Shown here one piece after another: positions 4,129-15,046 of a DNA stretch of 29,165 bases. The number at the start of each line of letters is the position of its first letter. The stretch's first letter is position 1. The stretch is from a virus (taxonomy: Duplodnaviria > Heunggongvirae > Uroviricota > Caudoviricetes), in the IMG/VR virus record IMGVR_UViG_2563366903_000025, positions 1 through 29,165 of that record. One strand, written 5' to 3'. The notes beneath the pieces were generated by a model, which was given only the letters and a program-made list of their open reading frames with translations, made no database searches and was not told the DNA's origin. The position numbers were made by a program, and so were the translations under genes.

Positions 4129-4677
4129 TCAGGCTGAAATGCCTTTATCAAATCCGGGTAACGCAATCTGCCCCTGCTGCTCCAGCCTGTCCAGCCTTGC
4201 CAGCAACTGAGGCTTCTTCACCCTGCCCCAGCGATTGAGCAAACGACCTGACATACTGGCAACATCTTTCTCTTTCATGTACTCCAGCATTACAGCGTTG
4301 CGTTCAGCTTCATAACTTTCACTGAACTTACGGAGTTCAGCGGACATCCAGTTAAAGGCATTAATATAGGCTTCTTTAACAGCATCAGCTTTTGCCCCGT
4401 TAAATCCCATAACCAGCATAACGAAGCCGCTAAAGTCCATGCGGTAGTAAATCTGCTTCTTGTCGAAAATCCCTAACTCATTGATTTTTTCGGCAACGCA
4501 AAAATGCGCTCTCCGGAAATCTTCAGAGCAATGGCAATTTTTCAGCGCCCTCAATACGTCCGCATGACGCTTACCAAACGCCTTAGCGATCTGAAAAGAG
4601 TCTGTTATTGGTTCGCCATCTGCCGCTGTTACCAGTTGGCGAAAATCAATACCGTCAACAATCGTCGGATAGTTCAT
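4129..4677 (-). CDS. rha: Rha-family phage regulatory protein
   Basis: 182 aa. N-terminus contains the Rha hallmark (QIAKAFGKRHADVLRAL). Confidence 0.75.
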   Translation of the reverse strand: MNYPTIVDGIDFRQLVTAADGEPITDSFQIAKAFGKRHADVLRALKNCHCSEDFRRAHFCVAEKINELGIFDKKQIYYRMDFSGFVMLVMGFNGAKADAVKEAYINAFNWMSAELRKFSESYEAERNAVMLEYMKEKDVASMSGRLLNRWGRVKKPQLLARLDRLEQQGQIALPGFDKGISA

Positions 4678-4853: not shown

Positions 4854-5321
4854 TTAATTCAGGCACTGAGTGCGGATATAGTCCTGTGCCCCTTCCAGCT
4901 GCTTCTGCATCAGCATCAACCGCTCTCTGAGGGTGAAATAATCCCGTTCAGCGGTGTCTGCCAGTCGGGGGCCGGTTGCATTATCCACGCCGGAGGTGCC
5001 GGTGGCTTCACGCACGGTACCGGAGCAGGTGGCGTTGATCCGCAGGCGCTTACGACCAGCGGCAACATCAGCACGCAGAGTTTCATTTTCAGCTCTCGCA
5101 TCAGCTAATTCCCTCGAGTATTTTGCATCGAGCGCAGCAACATCACGCTGGCGCACCTGCATGTCAGTAATGGTTGCGTTTGCCAGCTCCAGCTCTCTGG
5201 CTTTTTTATCGCGCTGCGCTTTGTAGGTGATGGCGTTATCGCGGTAATGGTTTGCTGCCAGCCACAGCGCACCGCAGCCAACCGCCAGGACAATAATCAC
5301 CACACACAGAACACGGTTCAT
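4854..5321 (-). CDS. Rz: Rz i-spanin
   Basis: 155 aa with N-terminal TM segment and coiled-coil body ([20 protein letters not shown]...[15 protein letters not shown]), closely resembling phage 21/lambda Rz as I recall it. Start overlaps the methyltransferase stop (ATGA). Confidence 0.88.
4916..5086 (-). CDS. Rz1: Rz1 o-spanin lipoprotein (embedded in Rz in the +1 frame)
   Basis: From ATG 5086: [17 protein letters not shown]..., a signal peptide with lipobox (VSAC) followed by a proline-rich body. Embedded position within Rz is diagnostic. Confidence 0.8.
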
Positions 5322-6262
5322 ATCACTACCATTTCACTGTTTTCTTTTTTCAGGCGTTTTTTTGCAACAGCGAAATACCGGTCATCCTTTTCTATTCCGG
5401 TAAACCATCTCCCCGTCCGGATACACGCAACACCTGTTGAACCACTCCCCATAGTAAAATCCAGGACCATATCGCCGGGGTTACTGTACGTCTGAATCAG
5501 CTCTTCCAGTAAGGGCACCGGCTTCTGAGTGGGGTGAAAACGCACTTTTTCCCGTGAGTACTCCAGCACATTTGAACGGTATTTTCTCCCGGCGGGGAGA
5601 TTAAACACCTTTTGACCGTAGGCATGATTAAGCTGACACATCGCTTCATATGTCATGAACCCCGGCATCCGGTCGATGCCAAAGCGTTCGATTAATTCGT
5701 TGTACGTTGCCCGTGAGCAGAGGGAAAACTGCGTGGTGTTAACCCTGAAAAAGTGCTCAGCCCGACAGTGTCCAAGCACCTTGTTAACCTCCTTGCCTGA
5801 CCGGTAACCGGTGAAGGAAAGAATGCTTCTGACGTATTCCCTCAGCGGGTGCTTTTTCTCACTATCATATTTTTTGCTGAACACAACAATGTCCTCGAAC
5901 AGCGATACCGGCGCCTTTGGGGCTACCAGCGGATTGGCAAAATGATTTTTTTTCCACACCATGCGATACGAAAACGGCAGATTGTTCAGCGCCTGAGTAA
6001 TCATCGTGCTGGTGTACGGCTCCTGACCGAACAGAATCAGTGTCCCGTTTACCCTCAGCAGACGCTCACACTGTAAGAATATCTCCACCGGGGGTAATGC
6101 TTCATCCCATGATGCTTTCCCTGAATCCCATGAAGGCAGGTTTAGCCCCTTAATGGTTCCATAGGGTGGATCAACGAGGATAAGGTCAATGCTTCCTTCC
6201 GGTAACGTTGGCATAATCTCCAGACAGTCACCATGATACAGAGAACTGTTCATCTCTTTCAC
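5318..6262 (-). CDS. DNA methyltransferase (beta-class N6-adenine or N4-cytosine; orphan, no restriction partner seen)
   Basis: 314 aa. N-terminal DPPY motif (LILVDPPYG) and C-terminal AdoMet-binding motif ([15 protein letters not shown] with upstream HPTQKP). Motif order IV...I suggests the beta class. No adjacent endonuclease-like ORF. Confidence 0.8.
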
Positions 6263-6390
6263 TCCAGCAGACCGGCCGAAGCCAACGCCATCCAGGCGAT
6301 GGAAAGAAAAAGAGCAACCAGCATGAGTGAAAATGAAACGCCGACAATCACACAGAGGACCTTTGCCGACGTTATGAGTTTGTCTGACAT
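6259..6390 (-). CDS. Small single-TM membrane peptide (43 aa)
   Basis: From ATG 6390 with an AAGGGG RBS: [43 protein letters not shown]. Stop overlaps the methyltransferase start (ATGA). Confidence 0.35.
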   Translation of the reverse strand: MSDKLITSAKVLCVIVGVSFSLMLVALFLSIAWMALASAGLLE

Positions 6391-6395
6391 CTTTA

Positions 6396-6488
6396 CCCCT
6401 TGATAGCAGTAATTAACTGGGCAACCACCCATAAAAACGGAATCAGCCAGACCAGCAAAAATTTCCAGTCCATTTTTATCATCTTCAT
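6396..6488 (-). CDS. Small hydrophobic peptide (30 aa)
   Basis: My translation from ATG 6488, which overlaps the antirepressor stop (ATGA): MKMIKMDWKFLLVWLIPFLWVVAQLITAIKG. Below the ORF-track length cutoff. Confidence 0.3.
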
Positions 6489-7180
6489 GCTGCGGTAGCT
6501 CTCCATGCAGCAAGCAGACCAGCAATCCACTCAACACCTTTTGGGGTGAATTTAACCTGCGTAAAAGCATGACCATTGCCCGCCTCGCCCGTTTTCACGC
6601 TAAACCGCCCCGCATCCAGGTGATGCGAGTAAGGCGTCATTTTTCCAGCGAGGCGATACATTATTCCGTTCTCCAACAAAAACAGCCGGAAATCGGTTTC
6701 TTTGATACCGAGTAACTTAGCAACTTCCCGGAATCCCATCAGACCAGATGCTTCAACATAGTTATCAACAAATTCGGCCTTCGGCGCTGCTATTGCCAGT
6801 TGATTTTCCAGCACTGCTTTCTGTTCAGCCAGTTTTGCCGCAAATCGCAACGCCTCAGGTAAAGTCCGGGGGATCTGAATACCATGCATCGCTTTGAGTC
6901 TTGCCAGCACAGAACGACGAACGGCCTTTGACTCCCTCATGCCAACGAGCATCATCTGGTCAAAATCCAGATCATAGTATGCCGTTCTTGTCTGGTTATT
7001 GTTTAACCGGAATTTTTTTCCGGTTCCATCAAGCTCTAGCTCATCCTCAATTTTTGCAAGAAACTTACGCGGTTCATGAGGGACTTCTCCGGCTTCTGCC
7101 CGGGCTGGATTAATAATGTTATTCAGAAAATCCAGACTACTCATGGATATTTCATGATCGACAGAAATCATCTCTTTCAT
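6485..7180 (-). CDS. Antirepressor-like protein with KilA-C-type C-terminal domain
   Basis: 231 aa. C-terminal segment LPEALRFAAKLAEQKAVLENQLAIAAPKAEFVDNYVEASG... is paralogous to the C-terminus of the 13088..13816 gene ([40 protein letters not shown]). Confidence 0.65.
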   Translation of the reverse strand: MKEMISVDHEISMSSLDFLNNIINPARAEAGEVPHEPRKFLAKIEDELELDGTGKKFRLNNNQTRTAYYDLDFDQMMLVGMRESKAVRRSVLARLKAMHGIQIPRTLPEALRFAAKLAEQKAVLENQLAIAAPKAEFVDNYVEASGLMGFREVAKLLGIKETDFRLFLLENGIMYRLAGKMTPYSHHLDAGRFSVKTGEAGNGHAFTQVKFTPKGVEWIAGLLAAWRATAA

Positions 7181-7453
7181 GGTTGATTCCTTTTAGTGAT
7201 GAACCCTGCGCACAGGAATAACCAGCCCAAAGAGGGTTAACCAGACCACTGCCGGTTATCCACCAGGGCTCATCCTGAAAGGTTCTTTGGTTTATTTACG
7301 CTTGTGCGAAGCGCAGAAATGACAAAGGCACCATTACGGTGCCTCTGCGTGAAATAATGTTCCTGACTTTATTCACTTACATTTTGCCAGCTCGCAGGAT
7401 TTCGTGTTATCCGCCCGCGTTGGCCAACGTCATTTTTCAGCAAAATATTCTGC

Positions 7454-7987
7454 TTATCTGTCGATTCCCCAGCACGCCAGCGCGCTCTCCTGGTCTCGCC
7501 GGGATACCTGACCGTAACAGTTATTTGAGCGAATACGGCAGTCCCTGCCACCGTCCTTAATCCACCAGCGAATCGCCTCACATGCTCCCCTGCGATCACC
7601 AGCATTAATTCGTTTATAAAACGTCGACGGGAAACACTTACCGGGGCCAATGTTGTACGGACAGAATGACGCGATCCCCGCTTTCTGGGGTTCGGTCAGT
7701 GGCACCCGGATGTTTTTCTCCACCCATGCCAGCGCCTTATCACGCTCAATGGCATTAACCCGGTCGCATTTTTCCTTCGACAGCTTCATGCCAGGAATAA
7801 CAGGCTTACCATCCACCCGGGTGGCTCCACGGCAGATGGTCCAGATACCCGCACCATCACGGTATGCTGTGGTGTGGTTGCCTTCTTTTTCATCCAGAAA
7901 CTGGTCGAGAATGTCAGGCGCAGAAGCGCCAGCGGCAATCAGCGCCAGAACGGCAGCCGATAAACCATAGCGGAGTTTTCTGCTCAC
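7454..7987 (-). CDS. R: SAR endolysin (phage 21 R-like lysozyme)
   Basis: 177 aa with an N-terminal signal-anchor-release-like hydrophobic segment (LSAAVLALIAAGASAP), followed by a lysozyme-like body. Sits immediately downstream of the holin. Confidence 0.85.
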   Translation of the reverse strand: MSRKLRYGLSAAVLALIAAGASAPDILDQFLDEKEGNHTTAYRDGAGIWTICRGATRVDGKPVIPGMKLSKEKCDRVNAIERDKALAWVEKNIRVPLTEPQKAGIASFCPYNIGPGKCFPSTFYKRINAGDRRGACEAIRWWIKDGGRDCRIRSNNCYGQVSRRDQESALACWGIDR

Positions 7988-7991
7988 CAGT

Positions 7992-8207
7992 TCATTCTCC
8001 CCGCGCCGCCTTACGCCGGTCCTCTCTGATTTTGAAATACAGGTTAGTCAGATATGTCAGCAGCCCAAACAGCAGACTCCCCAGCACGCCTATTGCCGCC
8101 CACTGAGACGGGGAAACCCTGTCCAGCAACTGCAGGAACCAGTAGCCCGTTCCCACCGCTGACGTGGTGTATGACACACCTGTTGTGATTTTTTCCATCT
8201 GGTACAT
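7992..8207 (-). CDS. S: Holin (S21-type pinholin with dual-start motif)
   Basis: 71 aa: [10 protein letters not shown]...[51 protein letters not shown]. Two TM segments and a basic C-terminus, near-identical in pattern to phage 21 S as I recall it. Met1 and Met4 are candidate antiholin and holin starts. Confidence 0.85.
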
Positions 8208-11138: not shown

Positions 11139-11150
11139 GTCCATAAGAAA

Positions 11151-11168
11151 GCCCCTCCGGAGAGGGGC
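11151..11168 (-). terminator. Minus-strand terminator-like hairpin, convergent with the previous terminator
   Basis: GCCCCTC-cgga-GAGGGGC. Minus-strand RNA is followed by UUUCUUAU. Confidence 0.35.
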
Positions 11169-11469
11169 TGGAGAGTGGCGCTATGTGCCATTGCATGGTG
11201 CCGGGTGCCTCCCGGTGAGTTCAGTATCAGCACCTGAACCCGCACAGAAAGGATAAGGGTCGGTGACAAAACACCAGTTGCTGATTGCCCCTCCGCACAG
11301 GGGGATTCACCATGCCAGTTTCTTTTAACAAACTCCCCGCAAACCAGACAACAGTCAACCGCCTGAATTGTGAGGTATTTAAAAATTTCAACGGGTAACT
11401 GATACCCTGCTAATCGCCTGATGCTTTCTTTTTCAGCAACGGGAAAGCAACAACCACCACACCCACCAG

Positions 11470-12486: not shown

Positions 12487-13088
12487 GCGGCCTCACTTCT
12501 GCTGTTTCGCAGGTCTTTGAGTTTCTGTTGGTACTCTGCCTTGATGGCCCTGCACTCTTCGACAGTCCAGCGATGGCGGTTATGGTTTGATTCGATTTCA
12601 TCTACTGCTTCCTGCCCGATGCGGCTAATCAGTTCGACGCGATACGGAACGAGATTTCCGCTTTTGTGCTGGTTGCACACCACGCATTGCTTGTGAATAT
12701 TGCGTTCATCAAATCGGAGTTGAGGTGCCGCAGCAGTTGTCCGGTAATGTCCGGCATCCCACTGAGCAGACGTGAGCGTTCCGCACGAGATACATGGTAA
12801 GTCGCGGTCTCTTTCTCTGATGAAGGCGTTTACGGCTTGTTGGGCTTGTTTAATCCAGTAACTGCGGGGCTTTAAGGCGAGTTTTCGAATCTTCAGTTTA
12901 TCTTTCTGTTTCTGCTCCTCTCGTCGTCGTTTCTTCTCTGCTGCTTTTTCCGCTTTTTCGCGTTCTTTACTTCGTCGTTCGAGTGCTAATTGAGTTCCGT
13001 GTTCCGGGCAGCACCACCACTGATTTGAGAATGCCGGGTGAAACCATTCCTTGCATATTTTGCATTTCCTTCGCGCTGGTTTAGCCAT
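12483..13088 (-). CDS. ninG: NinG (Rap) recombination protein
   Basis: 201 aa, near-identical to lambda NinG over most of its length ([61 protein letters not shown]...). Confidence 0.9.
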
Positions 13089-13816
13089 TAAGCAGCCTCC
13101 CCTGTTACTTTCAGCATTCCGTTATCGAGCAGCTTTCTGGTCAGCCACTGTTGACCACGCCCGGTGATTTTTGTGGTGAACGATATCTGTATTCCGTGAT
13201 TTGTGTTGACCGCTGTTTCTTTCACTGTGAAATAGCCGCGCTCCATATATTCCTGCATTGGCACATTTCGCCGGGAACCTGAAGTAATAAGGATTTTGTG
13301 ATCGCGCATCCACGCAAACAGTTTGTTTGGACCAATTCCAACAACCTTTGCATAGTTTCCAATCAAAATTCCGCTGGCCTCGCCAACGCGATCGGCAAAC
13401 TCAACTTTAGGTGCTGCGAGAGCAAGCTGTTTCTCCAGTTCAGCCTTCTGGTCTTCAAGGTCGGCCGCAAGGCGCAATGCCTCAGAAAAGGTTTGTGGTA
13501 TTTTCGCGGTTGCCCCTTCGAGTTCTCGCCAACGGTCAACAAGACGAGCGGTGAATTCCGGCGACAACTGAGCGACGACAATAATGCTGTCGCGCTTACC
13601 TTTTTCGCCTTCGAAGACGTAATGCTCGTACTGAACATTGAACCCTAAGTTATTGATTCTTTCGGAAACCTCAATTTGAGGAAGCCGGATAACTCCACTT
13701 TTAACCAGCGTTTCGATGGTTCGTTTCACATTGTCATGACGCTTACCTGTAAGCTCAGCGATTTCAATGCTAGTCATTTTGATGACGTTGCTATTTATCA
13801 GCTCGTTCATTGTCAT
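13088..13816 (-). CDS. Rha N-terminal / KilA-C C-terminal antirepressor-like protein (Roi-like)
   Basis: 242 aa. N-terminal Rha hallmark ([19 protein letters not shown]) and C-terminal KilA-C-like domain. Located between ninG and the nin accessory gene. Confidence 0.7.
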
Positions 13817-13961: not shown

Positions 13962-14975
13962 TTACTTGTCTGAATCATCCAGTTCGTCTGTTTTCACATC
14001 CTCAAACCTTGGATGCAGGCGATTCATTTTTGCAATAAAATCTGAATAGTCGTTAGATAGCTTCATAATCGTAACGGTTGATGACAGATGCTCTCTTAAT
14101 TTTTGATATCCAATATTTGGCGTCAGCCCCTGAAACAACTTTGTACCTTTTGAGGCCTTTACGTTCTGCTTTTTAAGCTCCTCAAGGATGTTTGGTGCCA
14201 ATCTCTTGTAGACGATATCATTTGTCAAAACGCCAAAATACTGAGGCCGGAAGCGGGGATTTTCCGGCGGGTATTCTAAGCCCCTTAACCTGAAAAGCTC
14301 TTCATAATAATCAGCAGGAAATGTTGTAATATAAGGTTGAATTTCCTTTGCGACAAAGGCCTCGAGTATTTTGGCGAGCGCATCTTTTTCTCTATCTCGC
14401 TGGTACCCCGTCGCTTCATCAACAAGCGCTATTATTCCGACTTTAGCTAATGAGCGCACCAGAATTTCAGCTTTCTTGGCTGTCTCTAACTGGTTTGGCC
14501 TGGTGATAGCGCCTGCCTCTCTTGCCTTTAAATAAACATCGCAGACAAGAGGTATTATGGATGCGTCATAACCTTCCTGGACGGAGCCAGTAATCGTCTT
14601 GTATTTGACCTTATTGATCACACCCATAACATCTTGATTTATATATTTTTTAAGGTTTGCAGCATCCATAAAAGCGGGCATATTGATCACCCCCTCTTCT
14701 TGAGGTGCTCTACCCCCTCTTTGTGGTCGGCCAAATGCTTTAAAAACAGAAGCTTGTGATATGATACGCCGTCCATTTTCGAGAACCGCGACATCTAATT
14801 CCGCATCACCGATCTTTAACTTTCCCTCATTCGCAGATACGGGCAATAAAGCTTTTTCTTTTTTTGCGGCAACAGCCTTTCTTGAGGATTCTTTTCTTTG
14901 CTCTGCTGTCATTTTTGCCGCGCGTGCCTTACCGCCTTTGGCCTTCCCACTAACATCATCATTTTTCATGAGCAT
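13962..14975 (-). CDS. AT-rich accessory (moron) protein of unknown function, 338 aa from ATG 14975 (possibly P63C-like; unverified)
   Basis: Long ORF with a Lys/Ala-rich N-terminus and a conserved-looking core (IALVDEATGYQRDREKDALAKILEAF...FRPQYFGVLTNDIVYKRL). Codon usage visibly AT-richer than flanking lambda-like nin genes. Own promoter upstream and terminators downstream. Confidence 0.5.
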   Translation of the reverse strand: MLMKNDDVSGKAKGGKARAAKMTAEQRKESSRKAVAAKKEKALLPVSANEGKLKIGDAELDVAVLENGRRIISQASVFKAFGRPQRGGRAPQEEGVINMPAFMDAANLKKYINQDVMGVINKVKYKTITGSVQEGYDASIIPLVCDVYLKAREAGAITRPNQLETAKKAEILVRSLAKVGIIALVDEATGYQRDREKDALAKILEAFVAKEIQPYITTFPADYYEELFRLRGLEYPPENPRFRPQYFGVLTNDIVYKRLAPNILEELKKQNVKASKGTKLFQGLTPNIGYQKLREHLSSTVTIMKLSNDYSDFIAKMNRLHPRFEDVKTDELDDSDK

Positions 14976-15000
14976 ATCTCGTGTTGTGATTGATAAGTCA

Positions 15001-15046
15001 ATTATACACATGCACGTTGTAACGTGCAATATTTAAATATGCACGT
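15001..15046 (-). promoter_or_regulatory. Near-consensus sigma70 promoter with overlapping operator-like palindromes upstream of the nin accessory gene
   Basis: Minus strand reads TTGCAC-17 nt-TATAAT (-35 at 15029..15024, -10 at 15006..15001). A perfect palindrome GCACGTTGTAACGTGC (15012-15027) overlaps the -35 and spacer. A second dyad ACGTGCA-N11-TGCACGT spans 15022-15046. Confidence 0.5.

Follow-up and report, generated by a model that had tools for sequence, protein, structure and literature searches.

How does a phage lysis cassette come to hold a DNA methyltransferase gene, and what would the enzyme do there? The question is raised by the IMG/VR record IMGVR_UViG_2563366903_000025, a stretch of 29,165 nt (hereafter the window; coordinates are window positions unless another locus is named, and the lysis and cargo genes discussed below all lie on the - strand) that is an Escherichia coli lambdoid (lambda-like) prophage. 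Its holin and endolysin genes, S and R, are separated from the spanin genes Rz and Rz1 by about 2.1 kb in which genes of the same orientation are packed closely together, coding for a KilAC-domain 'antirepressor-like' (Ant-like) protein, two small hydrophobic peptides, which we call pep1 and pep2, and an orphan methyltransferase (MTase). A sequence-only reading of the window had pointed out this split, and it is borne out here: the open reading frames (ORFs) named in that reading all exist on the - strand, with the correct coordinates, except that the first peptide has 31 aa rather than 30. We propose, with a probability of about 0.7 for the reading as a whole, that the R-Rz interval is a cargo slot in a late operon dependent on the antiterminator Q, that the block in it is a recombinant of two modules, and that the methyltransferase would be made late and act on progeny DNA.

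The mosaic R-Rz interval

The history of the block can be read from two E. coli prophages, each of which matches one part of it. In pairwise BLAST comparisons, positions 8800-6253 are 98.9% identical to the SW070917 prophage, in which the order is S, R, KilAC gene, pep1, pep2, two small ORFs and Rz, without a methyltransferase, and positions 6390-4100 are 100% identical to the DETEC-S792 prophage (NZ_CP116067), in which the order is R, a 60-aa ORF (hyp60), pep2, methyltransferase, Rz and Rha, without a KilAC gene; the two matches overlap in pep2 only. In a six-way alignment, the window is of the SW070917 type (L004) up to the pep2 ATG and of the DETEC-S792 type (L002) from the first polymorphic pep2 site, 6369, onward, and the 5' stretch of pep2, ATGTCAGACAAACTCATAA, about 20 nt from the ATG, is identical in all six sequences. 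This alignment places the crossover interval between the ant-pep1 and pep2-MTase-Rz modules at 6370-6392. Judged by these comparisons, the block is a recombinant of two independent, pre-existing modules joined inside pep2. One, module A, would be an insertion of ~0.9 kb with the KilAC gene, the stop of which was grafted onto a 31-aa remnant of pep1, followed by pep2; the other, module B, would consist of pep2 and then an orphan beta-class DPPY methyltransferase with its stop overlapping the Rz start. In the simplest history, a single homologous crossover in the invariant first ~21 nt of pep2 would have joined A to B.

Surveys of genomes bear on how ordinary the parts are and how rare the whole is. 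Of 5,426 complete E. coli genomes, 195 carry the KilAC-pep1 module at nearly full length, and deposited phages such as Lys8385Vzw and several Stx1a phages have it as well; the methyltransferase is found in 12-13 of the same genomes (one at 100%, eight at 78% and three at 67% identity), and the two modules together in none of them and in no deposited phage genome. The only other copy of the full block that we found is in E. coli assembly GCA_000408105.1, in which contig KE136894.1 shares an 8,132-bp stretch with the window at 100% identity; an exact 73-nt search of IMG/VR for the ant-type/MTase-type junction matched no contig. The exact pep2 allele of the window occurs in ten distinct contexts, with a KilAC gene upstream in the source genome only and an ORF of 43-60 aa in the other nine. 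Of 80 viral contigs gathered with a four-sequence pep2 alignment as query, 69 share the same R-pep2 and pep2-Rz spacings, and this commonest layout (R, a pep1-like ORF, pep2, a truncated relative of the 60-aa ORF, a 28-aa ORF and Rz) has neither a KilAC gene nor a methyltransferase. Within the R-Rz interval, pep2 stays constant and both of its sides vary; the interval itself is a known variable cargo slot, and the block a rare recombinant of two ordinary modules.

The sequence-only reading had instead seen a single extension in which the two peptides are coupled to the methyltransferase, and this does not stand, since the peptides overwhelmingly occur without the enzyme (in the 69 of 80 contigs, in Lys8385Vzw and in SW070917). 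It had also said what would tell against it, namely the same block as the standard configuration of the closest relatives together with an inactive methyltransferase; ant and both peptides are indeed standard there, but the enzyme is not inactive. That interpretation was broadly reasonable but overstates both the unusualness and the unity of the block.

The relatives of each module show how the slot has been filled. Lys8385Vzw (MT225100; L001) and SW070917 share with the window the same S and R genes, the same R-ant spacer and a 100% identical KilAC protein, and their pep1 is either the same as in the window (SW070917) or 97% identical (Lys8385Vzw), pep2 being 83% identical; however, pep2 is followed directly by Rz in Lys8385Vzw and by two small ORFs in SW070917, neither with a methyltransferase. 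DETEC-S792 and its metagenomic relatives show 100% nt identity from pep2 through MTase, Rz and Rha, but a 60-aa tail-anchored peptide replaces ant-pep1, and a DUF1327/YdfR insertion lies between S and R. Such relatives have a second cargo slot at the holin-endolysin junction, with DUF1327/YdfR-family genes, some of them truncated, between S and R (L002 2163-2504, L175 2350-2880, L180 585-1574 and L182 478-987); in the window itself, S and R are adjacent. Among phages with the Shiga toxin gene, 933W (Stx2; S-R-ant-Rz-Rz1-bor; NC_000924) resembles the window in the families of its pinholin, SAR endolysin and Rz/Rz1, in having an 'Ant' gene between R and Rz, as the sequence-only reading had stated for some such phages, and in a pep2 homologue, unannotated there, directly before Rz. 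The differences are that the 933W Ant has 189 aa and is unrelated in sequence to the KilAC protein of the window, and that 933W has no pep1 and no methyltransferase.

The KilAC gene (6485..7180, 231 aa) encodes a C-terminal KilAC domain (PF03374 ANT, E 5e-28) on residues 125-224, whereas residues 1-124 have no Pfam match, and the protein aligns to phrog_63 only at profile positions 122-359 of 431. It is without the N-terminal AntA/Bro-N, KilA-N or Rha partner of full-length antirepressors. Given the lack of such a partner and of any relationship to the 933W Ant, 'antirepressor' is an annotation only. Another KilAC gene of the window, 13816-13088, does carry a Rha N-domain; this gene (13088-13816, -) and a P63C-domain gene (13962-15029, -) lie in the nin region, so that, counting the KilAC gene of the block and the Rha/ORF11CD3 gene directly after Rz (4129..4677, -), the prophage has three Rha/KilAC genes in total plus the P63C-domain gene. 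Its other genes include a CI-like repressor, replication genes O and P, NinB, NinG, Q (12377-11901), a SASA/NanS-type esterase, DUF826, HNH and terminase; no stx genes and no tRNAs were seen in the window.

The lysis genes on either side of the block form a cassette of the phage 21 type: a class II holin, a signal-anchor-release (SAR) lysozyme and an Rz with embedded Rz1. The pinholin S (7992..8207, 71 aa; PF04971, E 9e-33) is 100% identical to WP_000284510.1 ('class II holin family protein'). The endolysin R (7454..7987, 177 aa, GTG start; PF00959, E 2e-24) has the N-terminus MSRKLRYGLSAAVLALIAAGASAP, Gly/Ala-rich and weakly hydrophobic, as is the case in R21-type SAR endolysins. The i-spanin Rz (4854..5321, 155 aa; PF03245, E 2e-50) contains, in another frame, the gene of the o-spanin lipoprotein Rz1 (4916..5101; PF06085, E 3e-21). 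The split of the cassette would be without mechanistic meaning of its own; S-R and Rz-Rz1 would stay on one transcript, as in 933W.

From ant through MTase, the genes are separated by spacers of 0-5 nt or overlap by 4 nt, in the orientation of S, R and Rz. The sequence-only reading had all four ORFs chained by ATGA overlaps; in fact, ATGA overlaps occur at two junctions only, ant/pep1 (gcATGAag) and MTase/Rz (atATGAac), the latter being the overlap of the methyltransferase stop with the Rz start that the same reading had noted. Between the pep1 stop and the pep2 start there are 2 nt (TAA-AG-ATG), and pep2/MTase would be a GTGA overlap only if the methyltransferase started with the GTG at 6262. 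That GTG sits within a Shine-Dalgarno-like GGAG, and the ATG at 6253, 8 nt past the GGAG and 5 nt past the pep2 stop, is the start picked by PGAP and by the metagenome gene caller in every relative; the methyltransferase almost certainly starts there. None of the named ORFs is a chance ORF, given that each has homologues and that no allele seen departs from the start, stop and length of either peptide.

A methyltransferase upstream of Rz

The methyltransferase (5318..6253, 311 aa) matches PF01555 over residues 25-302 with 105.9 bits against a gathering cut-off of 26.7 (E 3.8e-30) and is 100% identical to WP_016238071.1. Its motifs come in permuted order, with DPPY (28-31) followed by a central region of ~100 residues, HPTQKP and FTMGSGSTG (266-274), and all three motifs are invariant in 15 homologues of 51-76% identity. 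Both halves align to the adenine methyltransferases DpnA (5hek) and CcrM in the PDB, and the best partial NCBIfam matches are adenine-specific enzymes, YhdJ among them. By these motifs and matches, the protein is a beta-class amino-DNA methyltransferase, and its target is probably N6-adenine, a choice favoured by DPPY (not SPPY/SPPF) together with the best partial matches to YhdJ, CcrM and DpnA. Against six relatives, dN/dS is 0.08-0.20, with synonymous sites near saturation, and no homologue has internal stops; on this pattern, the gene is intact and under purifying selection. A pseudogene was rejected given the intact motifs and low dN/dS. Its neighbours are pep2 and Rz, with no restriction gene, in agreement with the earlier description of an orphan; the nearby genes include a single nuclease-like one, the terminase-associated HNH (3696-3331), and half of a restriction-modification pair was rejected because no nuclease partner is present. 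When the window is compared with E. coli strain 48 (L003), the proportion of synonymous differences (pS) is 0.53 in the methyltransferase and 0.23 and 0.17 in the flanking R and Rz, respectively; at two to three times that of the flanks, this value indicates that methyltransferase alleles have a history separate from their flanks, even in the same slot.

The position next to Rz recurs in other prophages. In seven homologue clusters from E. coli and Salmonella, spanning 56-100% methyltransferase identity (P0001, P0007, P0017, P0033, P0049, P0051 and P0054), the gene directly precedes a PF03245 Rz in all seven, downstream of the lysozyme, its stop usually overlapping the Rz start or falling 5 nt before it, and this in varied backgrounds (PF04971 or PF16080 holins, different terminases, one P2-like late operon). 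Across the enterobacterial contexts sampled, with homologues of 56-77% identity, a homologue stands directly upstream of Rz in seven of eight. The S-R-MTase-Rz prophages of Salmonella enterica (P0017, P0051, P0054, P0033, P0049) have enzymes 56-63% identical to that of the window, often with the same start-stop overlap, but they differ in holin, endolysin and head genes (a P2-like phage is among them), lack a KilAC gene and have either no peptides or ones of the 45-aa type in the pep1 family. In P2-like elements of Arsenophonus, the methyltransferase follows Rz (holin, lysozyme, Rz, methyltransferase, tail gene R), and more distant relatives are scattered across many phyla. In the genomes compared, the R-Rz interval rarely holds a methyltransferase in E. 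coli, and the arrangement recurs in Salmonella prophages. Among 50,697 deposited phage genomes, we found no homologue above 54% identity and no Stx-phage match at E <= 1e-30; the R-MTase-Rz arrangement is thus so far confined to prophages and metagenomes.

Searches of the literature yielded no description of a methyltransferase in a lysis cassette, or of small membrane proteins between endolysin and spanin; the nearest parallel is offered by relaxed-specificity methyltransferases that adjoin lysis genes. Among these, PhiOS31_p25 was tested, and its gene lies just before the lysis genes of OS31, and phiP27 L24 is counted with them on homology alone (PMC7556043). A separate beta-class case is M.EcoGII, silent in the lysogen and harmful if expressed constitutively (PMC5778455). 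All three are, like the enzyme of the window, beta-class DPPY...FxGxG enzymes of lambdoid phages, but L24 and PhiOS31_p25 are encoded between Q and stx or the lysis genes (L24 between Q and stx, in the late region), whereas the methyltransferase studied here lies between R and Rz. Close kinship to the relaxed-specificity enzymes PhiOS31_p25 and phiP27 L24 was not found: identity to L24 is 28% over 325 aligned positions, with the central region gapped, which makes the relationship a distant one.

Two predicted small membrane peptides

The block encodes two putative peptides for which Pfam, NCBIfam and PADLOC return nothing, nor do they for the 60-aa relative, and which PHROGs places only in families of 'unknown function'. 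pep2 (6259..6390), a hydrophobic ORF of 43 aa with the ribosome-binding site AAGGGG 5 nt before its ATG, belongs to phrog_4906 (E 7e-22) and is annotated as hypothetical by PGAP. Its 36 clusters are all from E. coli/Shigella, all with at least 74% identity, and all alleles keep start, stop and 43 codons; its ratio of nonsynonymous to synonymous differences (pN/pS), ~0.5, is similar to that of Rz (0.4) and indicates weaker constraint than in R (0.15-0.24). In 933W (L193, 5421-5570), the homologue is an unannotated 49-codon ORF between ant and Rz, its start overlapping the ant stop, with 60-65% aa identity and a pN/pS of ~0.5.

pep1 (6393..6488), a 31-aa ORF with a single transmembrane segment, starts with an ATG that overlaps the ant stop, matches phrog_6632 weakly and is intact in four of four alleles (for pep1 and pep2, alleles were taken by ungapped extraction, which is valid for those two genes only). 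It represents the C-terminal 31 codons of a ~45-aa tail-anchored family and is 5'-truncated; in loci without the KilAC gene, the frame continues upstream (...DFSKLIRELRLMISQLPNWKFLLVW...). Just before its methyltransferase gene, a Salmonella P2-like prophage has a homologue of 45 aa, MSDISKLIRELREMSEKIPGWKFLLVWTVFFLFGLSSLIQAVRWW, and between this and pep1 the aa identity is 59%, with pS 0.73, pN 0.28 and pN/pS 0.38, which is reasonable evidence that the pep1 family encodes a protein. The C-terminal hydrophobic motif is shared by pep1, the 60-aa ORF of DETEC-S792, a 45-aa ORF preceding the methyltransferase in another E. coli and the 28-aa ORF. Small ORFs right before MTase or Rz share the ending ...(I/V)RWW-stop, after which the next ATG follows at a distance of one base (L014 4862-4999, L187 2862-2999, L190 2766-2999, L004 3473-3559), that of L190 being a KilA-N fragment fused to the same ending. 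With the next ATG so close, the conserved nucleotides double as the ribosome-binding region of the next gene, and the RWW ending looks like a portable junction, at once ribosome-binding site and recombination patch.

From here, one could argue that the small ORFs are mainly conserved junction DNA, that is, homology patches and ribosome-binding spacers retained by lambdoid-phage recombination. The crossover that created the block falls where the 5' end of pep2 is invariant, relatives have an interval pieced together from partial paralogues, with some calls overlapping or without the N-terminal half, and the many RWW endings 1 nt before the next ATG show nucleotides serving a second purpose. However, the reading frames are intact in every allele, synonymous divergence exceeds nonsynonymous divergence in all comparisons, most clearly in the pep1 family, and junction DNA alone would not keep a 43-codon frame at the 74-75% nt identity seen between 933W and the E. 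coli prophages. We regard this explanation as possible though doubtful.

The same constraint could be taken to mean that both peptides have a true accessory role in lysis and adjust the pinholin/SAR-endolysin/spanin pathway, for instance by setting when the SAR endolysin is released or the spanins are activated, in which case the R-Rz interval would be a functional part of the cassette. Whether in E. coli lambdoid prophages, in 933W or in the Salmonella P2-like prophage, the peptides are always found in the R-Rz interval; the pep1 family is constrained at the protein level across genera; pep2 has a constant start, stop and length and a good ribosome-binding site; and both are predicted to have a single transmembrane segment, as many lysis regulators do. 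Conversely, neither shows homology to characterized lysis proteins in the four collections searched, the pN/pS of pep2 is just ~0.5, from few alleles, pep2 is confined to E. coli/Shigella, Salmonella S-R-MTase-Rz cassettes (L010, L189) do without such peptides, and pep1 of the window is a 5'-truncated copy. A role in lysis thus strikes us as unlikely, and the probability left by these two explanations goes to real peptides of unrelated or no important function.

Probable late expression and its possible meaning

Whether the cargo genes are lysis partners or passengers, the favoured reading has them carried on the late transcript. The gene chain is not continuous from R, given the 273-nt non-coding gap between R and ant (7181..7453). 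This spacer is strongly structured, with a minimum free energy of -96.3 kcal/mol versus -73.6 +/- 5.2 in shuffles (z -4.3), and contains a terminator-like hairpin at 7348-7322 and an imperfect hairpin of ~100 nt, 7283-7186, that reaches into the ribosome-binding site of ant. From ~7368, it belongs to the ant module, homology to ant-less loci stopping at 7368. No Rfam family matched the spacer; its relatives are too similar for a covariation test.

A consensus scan for promoters returned three sites in 4.9 kb, against 4.9 expected from shuffled sequence, and, crude as it is, none on the - strand upstream of ant, pep1, pep2 or MTase; there is no terminator between the cargo genes and Rz. By this crude consensus search, no cargo gene has the promoter upstream and terminator downstream of its own that characterize a moron. 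The same orientation, the lack of a convincing promoter of their own and the tight packing make late-only transcription most likely, and the best support goes to their being expressed together with the lysis genes, dependent on Q. The sequence-only reading had likewise placed methyltransferase expression late, which, given no credible internal promoter and the start-stop coupling to Rz, is the most economical reading. Between Q and the SASA/NanS-type esterase gene (10915-8933) lies a full-length match to the Rfam small RNA STnc100 (11139-11344, -; 143 bits, gathering score 47, E 2e-32); this element probably forms the leader of the late transcript on which the whole block would be carried.

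In the reading that we favour, then, the block would be transcribed only after induction, from the Q-dependent promoter, with Q-modified polymerase reading through the hairpin at 7348-7322. Its genes would be translated with the lysis genes, the methyltransferase being translationally coupled to its neighbours, and the enzyme would be silent, hence harmless, in the lysogen. By analogy with phage methyltransferases of late operons, it may methylate replicated phage DNA shortly before packaging and lysis, so that progeny would be protected from restriction in the next host.

Several points weigh against this reading. That transcription is late, that translation is coupled and that progeny DNA is methylated are steps that we infer; the crude consensus scan leaves room for a weak or non-sigma-70 promoter; and the terminator-like hairpin between R and ant makes readthrough by Q-modified polymerase a requirement. 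Furthermore, the methyltransferase is not tied to lysis genes everywhere: in S. diarizonae CCUG 30040T, a 58%-identical enzyme is encoded outside any lysis cassette, a counter-example by which we rejected an invariable lysis linkage, and phage vB_EcoM-ep3 has a 54%-identical copy after the primase. The S. diarizonae copy (L015, 2655-7218) lies beside a serine resolvase/invertase and a GH31 glycosidase. Finally, an AlphaFold2 model of the enzyme from the 15-sequence alignment was too poor to be used (mean predicted local distance difference test score, pLDDT, 51; predicted template modelling score, pTM, 0.37).

The opposite assignment, a lysogenic-conversion gene (moron) active in the resting lysogen and altering host methylation and expression or restriction-modification identity rather than progeny DNA, is in our view improbable: host-reprogramming prophage methyltransferases are documented, for instance in S. 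aureus (bioRxiv 10.1101/2024.04.17.589803), and a 9/12 promoter-like match lies at 6262-6233 on the - strand, but this site spans the start codon of the methyltransferase instead of preceding it, in a region with fewer matches than shuffled sequence, no terminator follows the gene, homologues in several phage backbones keep the overlap of its stop with the Rz start, and the related beta-class M.EcoGII is silent in lysogens (PMC5778455).

A bolder combination would make the peptides an unrecognized accessory lysis class in pinholin/SAR-endolysin phages and, at the same time, the methyltransferase, coupled to Rz in several unrelated phage backbones, a dedicated 'last-minute' DNA-modification module, its dose and timing set by the lysis cassette; we would put little weight on both holding together.

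These findings are incremental and do not overturn current understanding. They do identify the junction between R and Rz, in prophages of the Stx type and related ones, as a cargo slot prone to recombination, with a crossover mapped to ~20 nt, and the methyltransferase coupled to a spanin gene as a recurring arrangement in enterobacterial prophages. They also bring to light two families of small membrane ORFs that have gone without annotation in the lysis region of medically important Stx phages, 933W included. If its synthesis is limited to the final minutes of infection, the methyltransferase would be a simple anti-restriction device, costless to the lysogen.

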